Assembly (NCBI GenBank): GCA_903825445.1
Contig: CAIKAS010000364.1
Coordinates: 26,298 to 90,297 of the forward strand
Source: an uncultured Acidobacteriia bacterium
GTDB lineage: Bacteria; Acidobacteriota; Terriglobia; Bryobacterales; Bryobacteraceae
Length of the DNA stretch: 64,000 bases
Direction: 5' to 3'
Shown: positions 44,956 to 55,867 of the stretch, piece after piece
Numbering within the stretch: position 1 is the first letter of the stretch
Layout of the letters: every line of letters starts with the position of its first letter
Position numbers and translations under genes: made by a program
The notes under the pieces: model-generated
What the model was told of the DNA's origin: nothing
Database searches by the model: none
Seen by the model: only the letters and a program-made list of their open reading frames with translations

Positions 44956-45957
44956 TCAGGCCTTGGCTATGGGCAGTTCAACGTCGACGCAGCCGAGTGT
45001 AAAAGCGAACGGAAATGGTCCAGGATCGGTTGTGCGGTACGACCCGTCAAAGAAGACCAGCGCGCGGCCACCCATATTCTCGTCGAATTGAAAGGTGGGC
45101 TTCCACGGCCCGGAGTGCCATCCTTTATCCTCAGCGGTCATAATCTGCACGGGCTGACTCCAGGCGGACAAATGACTCCAGGGCTTGCTGCCTCGGCACC
45201 ACCATAAGCCTGTCTCGGGGGGAGGAGTGTCGGCCCCGACCCAGACCCGCGCGAATATCGCATCAAATCCAGCACCGCGCGGACGAACGCAGAAGTCGAA
45301 CATCCTTAGTTCTGGCCCCGCAAAGACGTGTCGCTGACTCCAATCGCCAATGCCGCTTTCGCTTTCCGCATAGCAATGGACAAGATAGTTCTCCTGATTG
45401 GAACCAGCGACATACCACATTTTCCATTTGCCATCGTGATAGATAAGGTTCGGTTCGTAAACGCTCCCGTTTTCCCACTCCTCATTTGCCCTGAAGGCAG
45501 GTTGTTGGCAATCTTCCCAAGCGCTCCCGTTCCATTCCAGAAAGCCGATTGAGTAAGGGCCCCAGAGATTTTCGACGGAGCCGGCATAGTAAATGCGTTC
45601 CACCCACGCACCTTTGGCTGGGTCCCATCCCTTCACATAAGATGGGCAGTGCCGTCCGCCGCCGCTATCCCATCCCCGGCTCAGTTCAGATCCTGCCAGC
45701 GGGGATGGCGCGCCCGTTTCATCGCGATCCACTTTCCAGCCGGTAGCTGTCAGGGGCGCTCCCGTGGGCAGTGAGGCGCTATAGAGATTCGTTGCTCCGT
45801 GCCCGCCCACTTGACCTGCAAGGCACATCCACCAGTGGTCACCGCGCCACACTACGCTTGCATCAACAAGCTCAGAGCCACCCGTTCCGGTAGCGGGATC
45901 GCGAGGATCGAAAACCTTGACTTCAGTTCCTGTTTGGGGCCTCGTGGACTGGAACAC
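44956..45957 (-). CDS. hypothetical protein, beta-propeller glycoside-hydrolase-like (GH43/GH130-type resemblance)
   Basis: 333-aa ORF with a Trp/Gly-rich repeated blade-like pattern (WWMCLAG, ERIYYAGS, GKWKMWYVAGS, ALVFFDGS). The function is uncertain. Confidence 0.35.
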   Translation of the reverse strand: MFQSTRPQTGTEVKVFDPRDPATGTGGSELVDASVVWRGDHWWMCLAGQVGGHGATNLYSASLPTGAPLTATGWKVDRDETGAPSPLAGSELSRGWDSGGGRHCPSYVKGWDPAKGAWVERIYYAGSVENLWGPYSIGFLEWNGSAWEDCQQPAFRANEEWENGSVYEPNLIYHDGKWKMWYVAGSNQENYLVHCYAESESGIGDWSQRHVFAGPELRMFDFCVRPRGAGFDAIFARVWVGADTPPPETGLWWCRGSKPWSHLSAWSQPVQIMTAEDKGWHSGPWKPTFQFDENMGGRALVFFDGSYRTTDPGPFPFAFTLGCVDVELPIAKA

Positions 45958-46178: not shown

Positions 46179-47411
46179 TTACTTCCTCGCAGTCTGTGAA
46201 TTCTCCGCCAGCAGTTTCTCCACTCGCTCCACGAATTCCTTCTTCTCCTTCTCGTAGAGAACTCCGCTCCCTGAACTTGGGAAGCCCGCATGCACGCCCT
46301 TCACCAGCCCGTCGCGACCCACAAAGAACGTCGTCGGCCACGCATTCCAGTTCTGCGCCTGCGTCAGTTTTTCCTTCGCGCTGCCCGTTTCGCCGGCTAA
46401 CAGCACCGTGTACTTAATGCCGTTCTGCTTGATAAACGCCCGCAGGCGCGTCGGGTTCGCCACCTGCTCCGCCTCTTCAAACGACAGCGCGATAATCTCC
46501 AGTCCCTTGCTGTGGTACTTGTTGTAAACCTCTGCCAGGAACGGCGCTTCGTCATGGCAATTCGGGCACCAGCTGCCCGTGATGTTAATCAGCACCACCT
46601 TGCCCTGAAATCGGGCATCGGTGTTCGATACGGTCTTCCCGTCCAGATCCGGAAAACTGAATGGAAACGGCTGCGTCGCGTCCTTCACCGTCGTGAAGGA
46701 ATTAGCGTCAGTCGGCTCCGCCAGGCCCTTCGCCTTGACCTCTTCCGGCCGGATCGCGACGACCGTTCCGCCCCCGCGCCCGCTCCCCTGATCTACCGAC
46801 AACGTACCGTTTTCCTGCGGCGTGATCGTCCAAATTGCCGGACGTGACCCATCGAAGTGGCTGACCACAAACTTGCCGTCCTGCCAGCCGCCCGTCAGTG
46901 CGCCAGTGTCGCCATCTACCCGAAGAATCGACGCCGTGACGTCGTTGCCTTTCTGTGTCACCACCAGATTCCACGCCTTCTCGCCCTTGCTGCTCTTAAC
47001 GTCTTCAATCACCCACACACCCGCCACATTCGGTGCCGGCGTCTTCGGAGCCGCCTGCGGGCGGTTGGGGACCGCGTGGATCGGTGAGGGCGCACCCGAC
47101 CTTCCACCCCGCGAAGTCGACCAATCGCCGTCCAGGGAGCCGTCTTTAAGGGTCAGCTTCAGAACCCCCAGATAACTATCGAAATTCAGAACCAGCGAGC
47201 CATTCTCATATGTGCCGCCGCTGGATATCAGCTTGCCGTCCCCGTTAAAGAACCAACCCTTTACGTCGGAGCCCGATCCCGAAAAGCCAATCTTGAACGG
47301 AATCTCCGTTGTGCCTTGCTTTAAAGTCGCGTCCCAGAGTCCGTCAATGGTCTGTGCCTGCATTCCGGCTACAACAGACAAGAACAGGATGCTAATTCGT
47401 CTGATCTTCAT
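46179..47411 (-). CDS. TlpA/ResA-like thiol-disulfide oxidoreductase, second paralogue
   Basis: 410-aa ORF with a signal peptide. It has the WCPNC active site (VVLINITGSWCPNCHDEAPFL) and GLEIIALSFEEAEQ. It is collinear over its full length with 38867..40168, including the unknown N-terminal domain (GxWDAxLxQ..TxIPF, LRVDGDxG, SHFDGSRP). Confidence 0.8.
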   Translation of the reverse strand: MKIRRISILFLSVVAGMQAQTIDGLWDATLKQGTTEIPFKIGFSGSGSDVKGWFFNGDGKLISSGGTYENGSLVLNFDSYLGVLKLTLKDGSLDGDWSTSRGGRSGAPSPIHAVPNRPQAAPKTPAPNVAGVWVIEDVKSSKGEKAWNLVVTQKGNDVTASILRVDGDTGALTGGWQDGKFVVSHFDGSRPAIWTITPQENGTLSVDQGSGRGGGTVVAIRPEEVKAKGLAEPTDANSFTTVKDATQPFPFSFPDLDGKTVSNTDARFQGKVVLINITGSWCPNCHDEAPFLAEVYNKYHSKGLEIIALSFEEAEQVANPTRLRAFIKQNGIKYTVLLAGETGSAKEKLTQAQNWNAWPTTFFVGRDGLVKGVHAGFPSSGSGVLYEKEKKEFVERVEKLLAENSQTARK

Positions 47412-47560
47412 AAATACTCCTTACTCGATAGACTATAGGGTGTTTTGTCTCCTGTCAATAGGCATCGCGGATTATTGTGCTAGACATGCCCTTGGTAATA
47501 ATATTATTTATCAATCAGTTACATAACTCTTACTACATACTGCCGATACTACATCGAAAT

Positions 47561-47569
47561 TGGTATGAT
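47561..47569 (+). promoter_or_regulatory. extended -10-like element (TGgTATGAT) in the divergent encapsulin/tlpA control region
   Basis: TG at 47561..47562 and TATGAT at 47564..47569. It lies ~200 nt upstream of the encapsulin ATG and there is no good -35. This is a pattern match only. Confidence 0.25.
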
Positions 47570-47769
47570 TGCAGCCGAAGTGGGTGTGCCGTGCCTCTCT
47601 GCAGCCAGTTTCGCCGCCAGCACCATGCTCGCTCAGGTCCGGTCACAAATAAATCCGCCCTACATCTACCCATTGTCGATGGACTTTAGTATGATGTGGA
47701 GTATGCGCTGGCGGCTCCCAGGCGTGAGTTGCTGGCATATTTACCATTAACTATTGGAGATTCAATTAG

Positions 47770-48693
47770 ATGGCCATCGAACCAGAACGGCAAACGGCAC
47801 TCGGCGACGTAGCGGCCCGCCAACTTGCCAACGCGACCAAGACCGCTCCCCAAATGTCGCGCATCACCCCGAGGTGGCTCACGCACTTGCTGCAGTGGAC
47901 CCCGGTGGAAGCGGGTATTTACCGGCTAAACCGGGTGAAAGATGAGGCTAAGGTCACCGTCGATTGCTCCGACCGCGACGAACGCGACCTGCCTCAGACC
48001 TACGTTGACTATGAAGAGAATGCACGCGAGTACATGTTGAGCGCCGTCAACACGGTGGTAGACGTTCACACCCGGGTTTCGGATCTCTACAGCGTCCCGT
48101 ACAACCAGATCACCGAGCAATTGCGCCTCACCATCGAGATTGTCAAGGAACGCCAGGAAAGCGAACTGATCAACAATCACGAGTACGGTTTGCTGCATAG
48201 CGTTGCTCCGAAACAGAGGATCAAGACGCATTCAGGTGTTCCAACACCCGACGATCTGGACGATCTGATCGCAAAAGTCTGGAAAGAGCCCGGCTTCTTC
48301 CTCGCCCATCCGCTGGCCATCGCCGCATTCGGGCGTGAATGCACCCGCCGTGGCGTACCACCGCCTACAGTTTCTCTCTTCGGCTCGCAGTTCCTCACAT
48401 GGCGCGGCATCCCGCTGATTCCTTCTGACAAGATCGGCGTCGAGAAACATAAGACAAGCATCCTCCTGGTCCGTACCGGCGAGCGCAGACAGGGCGTCGT
48501 CGGACTCTACCAACCCAATCTTCCGGGTCAGCAAAGCCCCGGTCTCTCGGTCCGTTTCATGGGCATCAACCGCAAGGCGATCGCGTCGTACCTGGTCTCC
48601 CTCTATTGCTCGCTCGCGGTTCTGACCGAAGACGCTCTCGGCGTCCTCGAAGGCGTGGAAACGGATAAATATCATGAGTACAAACGCGTTTGA
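47770..48693 (+). CDS. family 2A encapsulin nanocompartment shell protein
   Basis: 307-aa ORF with GGAG 11 nt upstream. The motifs are collinear with SrpI/Rv1762c-type shell proteins as I remember them: ARQLANATKT, ITPRWLTHLLQWTPVEAGIYRLNRV, LPQTYVDYEE, HTRVSDLYS, QLRLTIEIVKERQESELIN, PTPDDLDDLIAKVWKEPGFFLAHPLAIAAFGRECTRRGVPPP, TWRGIPLIPSDK, GLSVRFMGIN. There is no cNMP-binding insertion. Confidence 0.85.
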   Translation: MAIEPERQTALGDVAARQLANATKTAPQMSRITPRWLTHLLQWTPVEAGIYRLNRVKDEAKVTVDCSDRDERDLPQTYVDYEENAREYMLSAVNTVVDVHTRVSDLYSVPYNQITEQLRLTIEIVKERQESELINNHEYGLLHSVAPKQRIKTHSGVPTPDDLDDLIAKVWKEPGFFLAHPLAIAAFGRECTRRGVPPPTVSLFGSQFLTWRGIPLIPSDKIGVEKHKTSILLVRTGERRQGVVGLYQPNLPGQQSPGLSVRFMGINRKAIASYLVSLYCSLAVLTEDALGVLEGVETDKYHEYKRV

Positions 48694-50317
48694 TCCCGGC
48701 CTTCCGGATGAACTGCCTGAAGGTTGGCCCGAAATAGAAACACTCGCACGCCTCGCAAATGAGTTCTTCTCTGCGAAGCCCGGAGAAACTGTGCCGGATG
48801 CTCACACGCCCGCGTCGCCGGAACCCGCGAATTTCGATTTGAACGGCGACGTTCCACTCGGCCGCTCAGCGCCGTCGCCTGTCGCGCTTCCCGGCGCGTC
48901 AGAATTGCAGGCGCTCATCGACGCGATTCCGTTCTCTCCCTTCGCGCCACCAGCGGCGGCGCCAGGTACCCCGGCGTCAACTGGCCCCAGTTTCTACTTT
49001 ATGGAGCAAGCTGGTCCAGGCCCGGTGACTCCGCCGCCCGGAGCCGCCACGCCACAAGCCTCTTTGCACGGCTTCAGCGGACCCTTCGACGTAGCCTCAA
49101 TCCGGCGCGACTTTCCCATCCTCGAAGAGCGCGTCAACGGCCGTCAGCTCGTTTGGCTCGATAACGCGGCCACCACCCAGAAACCGCGTCTCGTCATCGA
49201 TCGCCTGAAGTATTTCTACGAGCACGAAAACTCCAACATTCATCGAGCCGCGCATGAACTGGCGGCACGGGCTACCGACGCCTACGAATCGGCGCGCGAC
49301 AAAGTACGCGGCTTCCTGAACGCCGGTTCTTCGAAAGAAATCGTCTTCGTCCGCGGCGCCACCGAAGCCATTAACCTGGTCGCCCAAAGCTGGGGGCGTC
49401 AGCACGTCGGTAAAGATGACGAGATTATTGTCTCCACGCTGGAACATCACGCCAACATCGTGCCCTGGCAGCAATTGGCAACGGAGAAGGGCGCTAAACT
49501 GCGCGTCATCCCGGTCGACGATAGCGGCCAGCTCCTTCTGGACGAGTACGGCAAGCTTCTTAACTCAAAAACGAAGCTCGTAGCCTTCACCCAGGTTTCG
49601 AACGCCCTCGGCACCATCACGCCAGCGAAGCAGATCATCGAAGCGGCGCATTCCGCCGGCGCGAAGGTTCTCCTCGATGGCGCGCAATCCGTATCCCATA
49701 TGGCCGTCAACGTTCAGGATCTGAATCCGGATTGGTTCGTCTTCTCCGGCCACAAGGTCTTTGGGCCTACCGGCATCGGCGTGCTCTACGGCAAGGAAGC
49801 GCTGCTCAGCGAAACGCAGCCGTGGCAGGGCGGCGGCAACATGATTCAGGACGTCACCTTCGAGCGCACCATCTATCAACCGGCGCCAAATAAGTTCGAA
49901 GCCGGCACCGGCAATATCGCGGATGCCGTCGGCCTTGGTGCCGCCATCGACTACGTTCAGTCCATCGGGCTGGACCGTATTTCGGAATACGAGCACCAGC
50001 TCCTGCTCTACGCCACCCGCTTCCTGCAGGAGATTCCCGGCCTGCGGCTGATCGGCACGGCGAAAGAGAAAGCGGGCGTCCTTTCCTTCGTTGTGGATGG
50101 CTACCGAACCGAGGATATCGGTTCTGCCCTCAATCGCGAAGGCATCGCCGTCCGCTCCGGACACCACTGCGCCCAGCCCATTCTGCGGCGCTTCGGAGTG
50201 GAAAGCAGCGTCCGCCCGTCGCTGGCGCTCTACAACACCTGCGCCGATATCGACGCCCTGATCTCAGCTCTGCTGCGAATCACAAGTCAACGAGCTTTTG
50301 CCACTCAGCGTACCTAA
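48674..50317 (+). CDS. cysteine desulfurase (SufS/CsdA-like, class V aminotransferase) with N-terminal encapsulin cargo-loading domain
   Basis: 547-aa ORF overlapping the shell gene by 20 nt. The catalytic core begins near IRRDFPILEERVNGRQLVWLDNAATTQKP. It has the PLP lysine in FSGHKVFGPTGIGVLYG and the active-site Cys in RSGHHCAQP. Aa 1-140 are Pro/Ala-rich and contain LARLANEFFS. Confidence 0.9.
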   Translation: MSTNAFDPGLPDELPEGWPEIETLARLANEFFSAKPGETVPDAHTPASPEPANFDLNGDVPLGRSAPSPVALPGASELQALIDAIPFSPFAPPAAAPGTPASTGPSFYFMEQAGPGPVTPPPGAATPQASLHGFSGPFDVASIRRDFPILEERVNGRQLVWLDNAATTQKPRLVIDRLKYFYEHENSNIHRAAHELAARATDAYESARDKVRGFLNAGSSKEIVFVRGATEAINLVAQSWGRQHVGKDDEIIVSTLEHHANIVPWQQLATEKGAKLRVIPVDDSGQLLLDEYGKLLNSKTKLVAFTQVSNALGTITPAKQIIEAAHSAGAKVLLDGAQSVSHMAVNVQDLNPDWFVFSGHKVFGPTGIGVLYGKEALLSETQPWQGGGNMIQDVTFERTIYQPAPNKFEAGTGNIADAVGLGAAIDYVQSIGLDRISEYEHQLLLYATRFLQEIPGLRLIGTAKEKAGVLSFVVDGYRTEDIGSALNREGIAVRSGHHCAQPILRRFGVESSVRPSLALYNTCADIDALISALLRITSQRAFATQRT

Positions 50318-50903
50318 GCCGCGCGAGCTCAAATCGATCCGTCGTGCGGCAGTAGACCGAAGGTGAGCCAAGCCGTCCGATCGGCGCGAAATCTTTGATG
50401 TGCATGCGCGGGCCCACCAGTTGGTCCGCCACGTGAAACATAACCACTTCGCCGATGATCAGCGTGTTCGCGCCGAGCGCCTGCGAACTGAAAAGCCTGC
50501 ATTCCAGGCTGACCTGCGCCTCGGCAACTCTTGGTGTCCTTACCTGGACGGAAGGCGCGGTGTGCAGGTGAGCGGCTTCCAGTTCGCTTTGATCCGGCGG
50601 AAAATCTGCTGCGGAAATATTCATAGCCGCAAGCAATTCCTCCGTCACAAAGTTCACCACGAACTCGCCGCTGGTTTGAATATTGCGTGCCGTGTCCTTA
50701 GGTGCCCCACTGTCACGGTTTCCAATGCCAACCACCACATACGGCGGAGCGCTGCCGACTGCATTGAAGAAGCTAAACGGAGCCAGGTTGACAACACCGC
50801 TGTCACCTGCGCTGGTGATCCACGCAATCGGCCGGGGAACCACTAAATCTGTCAGCAACTTGTAGTTTTCCGCGTTCGCGTGAAGAGAGGGATCGATTTG
50901 CAT
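50280..50903 (-). CDS. flavin reductase family protein (FMN-binding split barrel)
   Basis: 207-aa ORF with VPRPIAWITSAGDSGVVNLAPFSFFNAV, typical of the flavin reductase-like domain. Its 3' end overlaps the desulfurase 3' end by 38 nt (convergent). Confidence 0.75.
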   Translation of the reverse strand: MQIDPSLHANAENYKLLTDLVVPRPIAWITSAGDSGVVNLAPFSFFNAVGSAPPYVVVGIGNRDSGAPKDTARNIQTSGEFVVNFVTEELLAAMNISAADFPPDQSELEAAHLHTAPSVQVRTPRVAEAQVSLECRLFSSQALGANTLIIGEVVMFHVADQLVGPRMHIKDFAPIGRLGSPSVYCRTTDRFELARLRYAEWQKLVDL

Positions 50904-52405: not shown

Positions 52406-53073
52406 CGTATCTACACGTCAATCTCGTCCTGGAATAAGTGCAATTTCTGACTGCTTTACCCCTCATTCAATGAGATTTATCGGACAATATATCGTCATTG
52501 AACAGAAAATGAAGTTACTTTGATTTTACCGCAGGTCGGACTCCTCGTGGCTACCACAGTCGCTGGTTACGAGTCTATCTGGTCCTCTTTCGAACAGTTG
52601 CAGGCCCGCCGTTGCCCATGGCCAGTCACAGGGACCCGTAATACTCGTATCCGGCACATAAGAAATCACTTCCCATCGTTCCCCCTTCTCTGCAAGGCTG
52701 ATTTCCCGCCTCTCTGCCATATAGTCAGATTGGACTATGCTTTCACAAGTCAATCTCGCGAACTTTTGCCAACAGGACTTAGTGCGCGTGCCGCCGACCC
52801 GCGTTACAGAAACGCCGGGACAACTAAAAAAACAAGATGTTCCAGCAAATCCGGCCTATCTATCAGAAAACAATAGCAACCCGCCGCACGGGAAACCCAT
52901 TTATAAGCCATTCTCAAGCCATTTCCGGTGTGTTTTAGCCCATTTTCCGGCCGGGAAAAGCCAACTCAACCCATCCAGGGACACCAAGACCCATTCCCGG
53001 ATAGACTCGCGGAAGACTTTGGTCCGGCCCCTGACATTTCAGCGGAAGCCTGCCTTCTGCCGCTGTCTTATGT

Positions 53074-53102
53074 TTGACATTCGTGTCCAGTCTCGCTATT
53101 GT
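53074..53102 (+). promoter_or_regulatory. sigma70-type promoter candidate for the ACIII-like operon (TTGACA-17-TATTGT)
   Basis: TTGACA at 53074..53079, a 17-bp spacer, then TATTGT at 53097..53102. It lies ~130 nt upstream of the actA ATG at 53232. Confidence 0.45.
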
Positions 53103-53231
53103 CATGAGTTGCCCTCTGTCCCGGGTTTTGGTCCGAAACGGGGTTCAGCGTGGGCTTCGCCGTACTCAATTTTCGTGTCCGATCCAGGTTTGTACAGCCG
53201 CTTCTCCGGTCCCCATTTGCGGCCTGCCGCC

Positions 53232-53717
53232 ATGATTGCGTCAGTGCTGCGCGGGCTTGCGCTTGCCGCCCTCTGCGCGGTCGGAATAACTGCGCTCCAG
53301 GCCCAGCAGCAGCCCATCGCCTATTCCCATAAAAAGCACATTGCATTAGGTTTAGCGTGCCTCGATTGCCACAGCATGGCGGATATTGGTCCAGCCGCTA
53401 CCATCCCTTCGGTGAGGAAGTGCATGCTGTGCCACTCAACCCTTGCGACCGACAAGCCTGAAGTCAAGAAGATAGCCGACTACGCCGCCAAAGGCCGCGA
53501 AATCCCCTGGCAACGGGTCTATGGATTTGAAACTCAGGCGCTGGTGAAGTTCAATCACGCGCCGCATATCCGGGCCAAAGTGGAGTGCGCCACCTGCCAC
53601 GGTGACATGACTCAGGCCGATACCGCGCAAAAACTGGTGAACCACAACATGGGCACCTGCATCACCTGCCACCGGCAGAAGGGGGCCTCGCAGGATTGCG
53701 CAACATGTCATTACTAG
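53232..53717 (+). CDS. actA: pentahaem c-type cytochrome (ACIII ActA-like)
   Basis: ORF 52737..53717. I moved the start to ATG 53232, giving signal/anchor MIASVLRGLALAALCAVGITALQA. It has five CxxCH motifs (CLDCH, CMLCH, CATCH, CITCH, CATCH) in 161 aa. Confidence 0.8.
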   Translation: MIASVLRGLALAALCAVGITALQAQQQPIAYSHKKHIALGLACLDCHSMADIGPAATIPSVRKCMLCHSTLATDKPEVKKIADYAAKGREIPWQRVYGFETQALVKFNHAPHIRAKVECATCHGDMTQADTAQKLVNHNMGTCITCHRQKGASQDCATCHY

Positions 53718-53731
53718 GCCCTAAACCTAAT

Positions 53732-55867
53732 ATGGAGCGCCGTGACTTCTTCAAGATCCTGGGAGCCGGCACCGCAGGCGCGGCTGCGACCAGTTGCGGC
53801 AGCAAGACCGATGCCCTGATTCCCCTTCTGGTCCCCGAACACGACATTCCGATCGGTGAAGAGCGCTGGCACCCCGCTGTCTGCACGGAATGCGCGGCCG
53901 GTTGTGGAACTCTGGTGCGCGTGATGGGCGCCGAACGGGTCATAGAAATAAAGGGTGAGCAGGTTCGCCAGCGCGTTGCCGCCGTGAAGAAGATCGAAGG
54001 CAACCCGCTTGATCCGATCAGCGGTGGCCGTCTTTGTGCCCGCGGTCAGGCAGTAGTCCAGGCGCTCTATCATCCCGACCGTCTGCGTGGCGCGATGAAG
54101 CGCACGGGTGATCGTGGCAAAGCATCATTCGCGGCTGTTTCCTGGGATGATGCCGTCGCCGGTGTCGCGCAGAAGATTCACGCAGCCGACCCCTCGCGCA
54201 TCGTGTTCCTGACCGGACCGAATGCGGGCAGCCGCTCCGCCGCAATTCAGGGATTCCTGAAGGCCATCAAGGCCCCGTCCGCCACTGTGTGCTCGCTGGC
54301 GGATTTCGCGATCGAGCGTAAGGCAGCTGAAGAAGCGCTGGGCTGGAAAGGCCTGCCGGTTTACGATGTCGCGAACGCCACACACGTCCTCGGCGTAGGC
54401 GCGGACTTTTTGGGCGGATGGGAATCACCGGTTTACTACGCGCGCCAGTTCGGACATTTCCGACAAGGCAGAGTGGGCATCCGCGGCACATTGTTCCAGG
54501 CGGAATCGCGCTTCTCCACAAGCGCGACGGCGGCTGATCGCTGGCTTCCCATCGCGCCTGGCTCGGAGCCTCAGTTCATCGCGGCAGTGGCCAGAATTCT
54601 GATCGACGCAAAGCTCGCCCCAAATGTAGCTGCCTTGCCGGCATCGGTGGCGCAGGCATTCCGTTCAGCCGATGTGGCTGCCCTGCTGAAGGCTTGCGGA
54701 CTCGAAGAGAAACGCACGCTGCCGATCATCCTCGAATTCGGCGCGTCGCGAGCGCCGCTGGTGTTAGCCGGCGCTTCGGCGGTTCACACGAATTCGCTGG
54801 ACGCCGTGATCGCATCGCATTATCTGAATCTGATGCTGGGCAACGTAGGCAAGCCCGGTGGCATGACGGCCCCGGCGACAAGCGCGATTGGCGTGGAAAC
54901 CAGCGAGTTGGCCAGCAGGCTCGCGAATGCCCAAGTCATTCTGATCGACGGCGCCAATCCGGCGTACCTGTTGCCGAAGTCATCCGGCATTCTGGATGCA
55001 CTGGGCCATGCGGATACCGTCGTCAGCTTCGCACCGCTGGTAGACGATTCCGCCGCCTACGCCGATTTCATTTTGCCGGATCATCATGCGCTCGAATCGA
55101 CCGTCGTGGTGGCGCCGGCGATGTCGGACCGTACCGCCATGGCGCTCGCCGAGCCCTTTGTCGAGCCGCTCTATGAAACGCAGGCGGTAGAGAAGACGCT
55201 GGGCGATATTGCAGGCAAGCTCAACGCCACCTACACGGCGATAACTCCCGCCGATCTGGTGAAACCGCTTTTGAAAGGCGACGCCACTTACGCCGAAACT
55301 GCCCGTGAAGGTGGCGTGTGGCTGGCACCCGATGCGAAACCGACGCCAGCGAAACCTGGCAAGGACGTAACATTGAGCGCGGCAACATTCGCCGGCGATG
55401 CCGCGCAGTTCCCGCTCTTCTTTCAGCCGTATCTTTCGCTGCAGTTCCACGATGGCAGCAGTTCACACCTGCCGTGGATGCAGGAACTTCCCGACCCCGC
55501 ATCGAGCGCCATTTGGGGGTTGCCCGTCGAGATCGATGGTAAAACCGCCCAGGGCCTGGGAATTGCGGAGGGCGATCTGGTCCGCATCGAATCGCCACAC
55601 GGCGCGATTCAGGCAGCGGCGTTTGTCCATCCGGCTGCGATCCCCGGCGTCATCAGCATGGGGATCGGTGGCGGCCACACTCACTTTGGCCGCTATGGTT
55701 CGGATCGCGGTGCGAATCCGCTTTCGATACTGGCCCCGTCAACCGAGAAGACAACGGGCGCCATTGCCACCGGGGCAACCCGCGTAAAGCTCAGCCGCGT
55801 GAGCGAAGAAGGCAGACTCATTCAGTTCTCCACGCAGAAGAGTGAGAACAGGGGCGCGCACAGGTAA
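53732..55867 (+). CDS. actB1: molybdopterin-oxidoreductase-family subunit (ACIII ActB1-like), Tat signal
   Basis: ORF 53696..55867. Possible starts are 53696, 53705 and 53732; I chose 53732 for the compact Tat signal MERRDFFKILGAGTAGAAATSCG. It has the MopB N-terminal Cys motif CTECAAGCG...GGRLCARGQ. Total length is ~710 aa. Confidence 0.75.
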   Translation: MERRDFFKILGAGTAGAAATSCGSKTDALIPLLVPEHDIPIGEERWHPAVCTECAAGCGTLVRVMGAERVIEIKGEQVRQRVAAVKKIEGNPLDPISGGRLCARGQAVVQALYHPDRLRGAMKRTGDRGKASFAAVSWDDAVAGVAQKIHAADPSRIVFLTGPNAGSRSAAIQGFLKAIKAPSATVCSLADFAIERKAAEEALGWKGLPVYDVANATHVLGVGADFLGGWESPVYYARQFGHFRQGRVGIRGTLFQAESRFSTSATAADRWLPIAPGSEPQFIAAVARILIDAKLAPNVAALPASVAQAFRSADVAALLKACGLEEKRTLPIILEFGASRAPLVLAGASAVHTNSLDAVIASHYLNLMLGNVGKPGGMTAPATSAIGVETSELASRLANAQVILIDGANPAYLLPKSSGILDALGHADTVVSFAPLVDDSAAYADFILPDHHALESTVVVAPAMSDRTAMALAEPFVEPLYETQAVEKTLGDIAGKLNATYTAITPADLVKPLLKGDATYAETAREGGVWLAPDAKPTPAKPGKDVTLSAATFAGDAAQFPLFFQPYLSLQFHDGSSSHLPWMQELPDPASSAIWGLPVEIDGKTAQGLGIAEGDLVRIESPHGAIQAAAFVHPAAIPGVISMGIGGGHTHFGRYGSDRGANPLSILAPSTEKTTGAIATGATRVKLSRVSEEGRLIQFSTQKSENRGAHR

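Follow-up and report, generated by a model that had tools for sequence, protein, structure and literature searches.

A probable cargo-loading domain at the N-terminus of a Family 2A encapsulin-linked cysteine desulfurase from a Bryobacterales-like acidobacterium

The DNA considered here is a stretch of 64,000 nucleotides (nt), hereafter called the window, from an uncultured Bryobacterales-like acidobacterium (contig CAIKAS010000364.1, positions 26,298 to 90,297). It carries two adjacent genes on the + strand, the first for the shell protein of a Family 2A (SrpI/Mmp1-type) encapsulin and the second for a cysteine desulfurase of 547 amino acids (aa), and the desulfurase encapsulin system at this locus is a two-gene operon. 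Our subject is the N-terminal part of the desulfurase, in which the initial annotation had singled out the string LARLANEFFS; residues 1-140 very probably constitute the cargo-loading domain of the encapsulin system.

The shell and cargo genes

The principal features of the locus are the following.

47770..48693, + strand: Family 2A encapsulin shell protein (SrpI/Mmp1-type), 307 aa, with no cNMP-binding domain (Pfam, NCBIfam, PDB)
48674..50317, + strand: cargo cysteine desulfurase, 547 aa, made up of the probable cargo-loading domain and a SufS-type catalytic domain (NCBIfam, PDB)
48674..48693, + strand: 20-nt overlap between the 3′ end of the shell gene and the 5′ end of the cargo gene, with the cargo ATG within the His-Glu codons of the shell (taT CAT GAG TAC)
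49094..50317, + strand: SufS-type (class II) cysteine desulfurase domain, dependent on pyridoxal phosphate (PLP) (Pfam, TIGR01979, PDB)

The shell open reading frame (ORF) scores 357.9 bits against the Pfam family PF19307 (SrpI-like) and 535 bits against the NCBIfam model NF041162 (encap_f2a; cut-off 380). The latter aligns end-to-end, residues 11-304 of the shell corresponding to positions 1-295 of the 295 in the profile, and the 2B model matches only the C-terminal half of the protein. Among solved shells the best match is that of the A. baumannii desulfurase encapsulin (8t6r_A, E=1.6e-153), followed by S. elongatus SrpI (6x8m_A, E=3.4e-153). The alignment to SrpI is gap-free over 298 residues and places shell residues F263 and Y274 on SrpI F262 and Y273, so that the two SrpI residues lying closest to the cargo density are conserved.

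The desulfurase scores 876 bits against NCBIfam NF041166 (f2_encap_cargo1, [quoted passage not shown]; cut-off 800), and its close relatives carry this very name at NCBI; a protein identical to it is present in ENA metagenome data. With both shell and cargo passing their respective models, the encapsulin call is upheld, and LARLANEFFS lends it the independent support that had been claimed. The catalytic domain is recognized by Pfam Aminotran_5 (E=1.5e-144, starting at residue 160), by TIGR01979 (sufS; 561 bits, cut-off 475, starting at residue 142) and by the crystallised M. smegmatis enzyme (PDB 8kg1_A, E=3.9e-180 over residues 138-537). In an alignment of 48 mostly acidobacterial homologues (clade alignment A1), K361 (in SGHK) and C499 (in GHHCAQP) are invariant; from what is established for SufS enzymes, we take them to be the PLP lysine and the catalytic cysteine.

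Related loci were obtained by scanning the shell protein against one genome per species, which gave 80 loci from Acidobacteriota, Burkholderiales, Bacteroidota and other groups; this comparison through the shell gene was adopted after a search with the N-terminal domain alone had given 2 matches. The closest genomic relatives are metagenome-assembled genomes (MAGs) of Bryobacterales, the shell of locus L001 being 93% identical to that of the window. A desulfurase gene lies downstream on the same strand in 77 of the 80 loci, and the other three are cut by contig ends, one of them still showing motif 1. Across phyla the shells are 78-93% identical, whereas the cargo-loading linkers are unalignable.

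In nearly all of the 77 loci, which span several phyla, the cargo ATG is embedded in the conserved C-terminal Tyr-His-Glu-Tyr (YHEY) codons of the shell (taC CAT GAG TAc), the two genes overlap by 14, 17 or 20 nt and the cargo begins with a conserved MST[NS]. This arrangement suggests, at the level of sequence, that translation of shell and cargo is coupled. It was not met in the encapsulin literature cited here, in which no dedicated search for the point was made. We would also like to point out that the start codons of the loci were picked by an N-terminus pattern ("M0"), whose count of 71/71 is thus circular and no evidence.

The N-terminal domain and its conserved islands

The initial annotation placed residues 1-140 ahead of the point where SufS homologues normally begin, and rightly so: solved SufS/CsdA structures align from residue 135-144 of the desulfurase onward, and as these structures, TIGR01979 and Aminotran_5 all begin past about residue 135, residues 1-140 are a real extension. 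It also described them as Pro/Ala/Gly-rich and of low complexity, in keeping with contents of 19.3% P (3.2% in the catalytic domain), 15.0% A and 9.3% G, to which 7.9% S is added for a P+A+G+S total of 51.5%; Lys and Arg together number 3, and the net charge is -13. In an AlphaFold2 run on the desulfurase with the 48-sequence alignment, the predicted local distance difference test score (pLDDT) fell below 50 at residues 1-6, 41-68 and 86-134, that is, across most of residues 1-134, while the catalytic domain was mostly of high confidence; short helices were predicted at residues 21-33 and 75-83. Together with the composition, these scores indicate that the domain is mostly disordered, as had been claimed. 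The Uversky charge-hydropathy plot does not separate it from the folded domain, because it is rich in Ala, Pro and Phe and not polar. A PDB search with the domain alone returned only a chance low-complexity match (E=5.8), and no solved chain of at least 20 residues contains it.

The composition bears directly on the idea that the domain is an export or membrane-targeting signal, for which the only point is the historical name of the shell family, "major membrane protein I", in PDB entries. The domain has neither a hydrophobic core nor a basic N-region, its charge and its scarcity of Lys/Arg are as given above, its highest 9-residue hydropathy window reaches 1.5, and the shell is a soluble HK97-fold capsid. 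Such a signal is excluded because of the composition of the domain, and its probability is next to nil.

Within the probable cargo-loading domain, five short islands can be distinguished.

48674..49093, + strand: N-terminal cargo-loading domain (probable), residues 1-140, predicted to be mostly disordered (composition, AlphaFold pLDDT, no solved SufS covering the domain)
48725..48784, + strand: motif 1 block, residues 18-37, WPEIETLARLANEFFSAKPG (column counts, k-mer scan, predicted helix, hydrophobic moment)
48839..48859, + strand: clade-level motif LxGxxPL, residues 56-62, LNGDVPL (consensus of the 48 mostly acidobacterial homologues)
48887..48922, + strand: motif 3, residues 72-83, LPGASELQALID, of LPGxxELxxLL type, a predicted short helix (clade alignment, pattern counts)
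48983..49009, + strand: motif 2 ("AASPYYFLDG" type), residues 104-112, GPSFYFMEQ (pattern counts, k-mer scan, PMC8049743)
49082..49093, + strand: junction motif PFDV, residues 137-140, directly before the SufS domain (clade alignment, pattern counts)

Translation of 48674-49093 gives LARLANEFFS exactly at residues 24-33 (nt 48743..48772), as had been reported. The initial annotation correctly took the string for a conserved targeting motif; it occurs in Nichols et al., 2021 (preprint and published version, eLife, PMC8049743), where LARLANEFFS and AASPYYFLDG are named as motifs present in most N-terminal domains of SrpI-associated desulfurases. Comparison of the N-terminal extensions of encapsulin-linked desulfurases, which the initial annotation had proposed as a check, found the motif conserved: the strict pattern L..LAN..F occurs in 57 of 77 extensions (0.04 expected from residue shuffles) and a looser one in 73 of 77 (1.45 in shuffles). 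Column counts over 73 loci give the consensus [LVIW]P[DE]xxxLxxLANx[FLY]FxAxPG, which at about 20 residues extends beyond the ten of the published motif. When k-mers of the window domain were compared, without alignment, with the 68 loci outside Bryobacterales, residues 23-38 and 103-113 alone stood out from the shuffled controls, and PFDV at the junction gave a weak signal; the excess over shuffles was 8-18 at residues 23-31 and 9-13 at residues 103-107, in the region of motif 2. In its exact form the decamer is present in locus L001 and in 3 of the 122 homologues, one of which has the same sequence as the window protein, the variants IERLANQFFQ and LTRLANQFFS being commoner; as it is just one variant among others, its exactness carries no added meaning.

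The helix predicted at residues 21-33 is, in the model, strongly amphipathic, with a hydrophobic moment of 2.00 against 0.82 +/- 0.40 in shuffles, a value reached by 0.2% of these. The conserved L24, L27, A28, F31 and F32 are spaced i, i+3, i+4, i+7 and i+8 and lie on one helix face, which agrees with the nonpolar binding patches proposed by Benisch et al. (2024; PMC10836720). Motif 1 occurs once in the six-frame translation of the 64-kb window. In the 904 kb of related loci, beyond the N-terminal domains of desulfurases, two chance-like matches were found, and one further match is a desulfurase cut by a contig end; no second motif-carrying cargo was found in the window or in these 904 kb.

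The initial annotation also suggested that GPSFYFMEQ may be another shell contact, and this island equals the second published motif. Its core, [FY][YF]F[LM][DE], is kept, although TGPSFYFMEQ of the window is identical to the published consensus at only 2 of 10 residues, and [FY][YF]F is found in 64 of 71 loci (2.9 in shuffles); the FYF[LM][DE] island stands about 30 residues ahead of the catalytic domain. Two further islands, LxGxxPL and LPGxxELxxLL, appear within the acidobacterial clade. In the former, P61 is conserved in at least 90% of the 48 homologues and no conservation is seen in distant loci; in motif 3, E77 is invariant in the clade alignment, P73 and L78 are conserved in at least 90%, and the pattern is found in 25 of 71 loci (1.1 in shuffles). 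PFDV, in which D139 is invariant in the clade alignment, is present in 50 of 71 loci (4.9 in shuffles); PDB alignments of SufS enzymes start there, and it may belong to the N-terminal edge of the catalytic domain. With the conserved ATG taken as their start, the extensions range in length over about 72-430 residues (median 183). Motif 1 begins at residue 12-42 in every locus, and the spacing between motifs 1 and 2 ranges from 66 to 182 residues. The steady position of motif 1 and the variable spacing fit fixed binding islands on free linkers.

These patterns also bear on whether the extension is an annotation artefact, the true start lying downstream (for example at ATG codon 110 or GTG codon 118) and the upstream frame being open but untranslated. 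In-frame start-type codons do occur at codons 40, 56, 78, 110, 118 and 131, and the GC content at third codon positions (GC3) is lower in the extension (0.61) than in the catalytic domain (0.74). However, the high GC content at second positions (GC2, 0.59) is in line with Pro/Ala/Gly codons, translation and function have been demonstrated for homologous domains, and from phylum to phylum the peptide motifs are kept, the linkers between them differing in sequence and length. The ATG at 48674 is moreover the first start-type codon past the in-frame stop and the sole one upstream of LARLANEFFS, and nearly all loci share both its position within the shell YHEY codons and the cargo N-terminus MST[NS]. 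With the peptide motifs and the start codon conserved across phyla, we regard a mis-called start as excluded, or at best very improbable.

Published systems and the proposed loading mechanism

Among the closest known systems is S. elongatus PCC 7942 SrpI with its desulfurase CyD (Synpcc7942_B2661; PMC8049743; PDB 6x8m/6x8t), likewise a shell-then-desulfurase pair in which a disordered N-terminal domain containing both published motifs precedes the SufS-type domain. The two differ in the length of this domain (about 225 residues in S. elongatus), in the second motif (AASPYYFLDG in the S. elongatus system) and in the host, the S. elongatus system residing on a cyanobacterial plasmid. In both this and the M. 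smegmatis homologue described next, the domain has been found to be required for encapsulation and to suffice for it. The first 100 residues of the S. elongatus domain also load cargo, the AASPYYFLDG fragment alone fails to do so, and the domain is without effect on catalysis (PMC8049743). The M. smegmatis pair Mmp1 and Enc-CD (PDB 8wol, 8won, 8kg1) has a disordered targeting region of 155 residues, comparable in size to that of the window; its deletion leaves activity unchanged, single motifs are insufficient for loading, and residues 1-50 or 51-155 are each sufficient (Tang et al., 2024; PMC11659603). The M. smegmatis shell is less similar to that of the window (E ~1e-136), and the crystallised protein that matches the window catalytic domain is without the N-terminal domain.

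Cargo-loading domain is the name used in work on the A. baumannii 118362 desulfurase encapsulin (PDB 8t6r), which described five partly conserved motifs and proposed that they bind discontiguously to nonpolar patches of the lumen, located at the threefold pore and on the A-domain (Benisch et al., 2024; PMC10836720). This model of short motifs, flexible linkers and nonpolar luminal patches fits the five islands of the window, the two sets being compared by description. The A. baumannii domain has about 225 residues and is Pro/Gly/Ser-rich; in that of the window, much of the Ser gives way to Ala, and the linkers are shorter. More distant likenesses can be drawn. The targeting peptides of Family 1 encapsulins (T. 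maritima and M. xanthus cargo) are likewise short, conserved and partly hydrophobic and dock to the luminal face of an HK97-fold shell, but each is a single short C-terminal peptide, whereas the window protein has a long N-terminal domain with several dispersed motifs, of a type whose single motifs have been found insufficient. CsoS2 of alpha-carboxysomes is likewise disordered and binds the shell interior through repeated short motifs, an analogy drawn by Benisch et al. (PMC10836720), but its sequence is unrelated and it is a separate scaffold protein, not a domain of the cargo enzyme.

By analogy with these homologues, the window desulfurase would be loaded into its shell as follows. The domain would act as an acidic, Pro/Ala/Gly/Ser-rich, mostly disordered tether with short conserved islands, namely the ~20-residue LARLANEFFS block (a predicted amphipathic helix), the LPGxxELxxLL helix and FYF[LM][DE]. 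During shell assembly, these islands would bind separately to nonpolar patches of the inner shell, near the threefold axis and on the A-domain, and the dimeric SufS-type enzyme would thereby be trapped inside the T=1 shell, where it would turn cysteine into alanine and store sulfur. As to which motif contacts which patch, motif 1 ([LVIW]P[DE]xxxLxxLANxFFxAxPG) may form a module of 20 residues at a near-constant distance from the N-terminus that folds on binding into an amphipathic helix, and this helix may settle on the patch of the conserved F263 and Y274, close to the threefold axis. The acidobacterial domain, with its 140 residues, may represent a tag that is compact by nature, of which the first ~50 residues may be the minimal portable part; the published truncations suggest that residues 20-40 alone would not load cargo and that residues 1-50 should. 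Finally, the embedding of the cargo start codon in the YHEY codons across phyla may enforce translational coupling and help to set the cargo-to-shell ratio. Taken jointly, the docking module, the compact tag and the start-codon coupling form a tentative proposal, to which we give somewhat less than an even chance.

Another view is that the main role of the domain lies elsewhere, as an intramolecular regulator, as a docking site for a sulfur acceptor (SufE or SufU, for instance) or as a driver of condensate formation or shell assembly, and that loading is a side effect. Long acidic disordered regions often have several partners, and no sufE or sufU gene adjoins the operon within the window. Against this, removal of the domain leaves kcat unchanged in two systems and the domain alone brings green fluorescent protein into shells (PMC8049743, PMC11659603), and in the sampled loci the conserved motifs are confined to desulfurases next to Family 2A shells. 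Of the three alternatives considered here this one keeps the most weight, and even so it is improbable.

The assignment of residues 1-140 as the cargo-loading domain draws on the two adjacent genes and the families to which they belong, on the conservation of the motifs, on the disorder and helices that are predicted, on the shell residues near the cargo density, which are conserved, and on the published work with homologues. No result contradicts it, and its limits are these. The NF041166 alignment covers residues 100-536 only, so that motif 1 takes no part in the membership given by this profile, which rests on the catalytic domain and motif 2. A database of 5.8 billion proteins, searched with the N-terminal domain by itself, yielded only 2 homologues, because the linkers are highly divergent. 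AlphaFold confidence in both helices is moderate (block means ~71-74), and no published structure assigns a motif to a shell site, the density being too weak in both cryo-electron microscopy studies. Lastly, loading, activity and sulfur storage are known from homologues, the window protein being known from sequence and prediction.

Genomic surroundings and significance

The genes flanking the operon lie on the opposite strand and are not sulfur genes (TlpA-like redoxin, flavin reductase, histidine kinase). No sulfur-responsive leader RNA was found when 47300-50500 was scanned against Rfam, and the promoter and terminator scan returned no more sites than shuffled sequence. The 3′ end of the desulfurase gene overlaps that of a convergent flavin-reductase-like gene (50280-50903, - strand) by 38 nt (50280-50317), and the terminator scan found no terminator-like site between the two genes. 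Divergent from and upstream of the shell gene, 46179-47411 (- strand) encodes a protein of 410 aa whose N-terminus resembles a signal peptide and whose C-terminal part is a redoxin domain of TlpA/AhpC type. Of 8 Bryobacterales-type loci, 6 have homologues of it (45-86% identity) at most 6 kb from the shell gene, in differing positions and orientations; the association may point to a lineage-specific tie with thiol/sulfur chemistry, or to synteny alone.

Farther out, 44956-45957 (- strand) is a 333-aa Trp/Gly-rich ORF in which strings like WxxxYYAGS / WKMWYVAGS recur, perhaps a sign of a beta-propeller-type fold; it has no Pfam match and no homologue in the 80 related loci. On the other side, 52737-55867 (+ strand) encodes a multihaem cytochrome c (c7/c3-type domains) followed by an overlapping molybdopterin-oxidoreductase-family protein with an Fe4S4 domain, and this gene pair resembles the beginning of a module of the alternative-complex-III or polysulfide/tetrathionate-reductase kind. 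Among the related loci, L005 (JBEKVI010000141.1) is labelled a Burkholderiaceae MAG, yet its shell (86% identical) and cargo group with Bryobacterales and its N-terminal domain resembles that of L007; L009 (NZ_JAQGLV010000391.1) is listed together with it. The grouping of L005 hints at a binning error or horizontal transfer.

The initial annotation held that the domain defines a portable targeting tag. As a novelty this does not stand, heterologous loading by the domain having been published in 2021 (S. elongatus) and 2024 (M. smegmatis). The motif, the role of the domain and its use as a tag were all published between 2021 and 2024, and no new question is opened; what the window adds is a new host for a domain described before, one that would be annotated automatically, the NCBI annotation pipeline already assigning close relatives to the cargo family. 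The additions made here are small: motif 1 spans about 20 residues, the YHEY codons of the shell contain the cargo ATG in nearly all loci, and the exact decamer is one common variant. For engineering, the window provides a natural cargo-loading domain that is rather short, with 140 residues where the best-studied systems have ~225. In this Bryobacterales-like acidobacterium, the two genes make up a complete desulfurase encapsulin, which is a protein compartment that stores sulfur.

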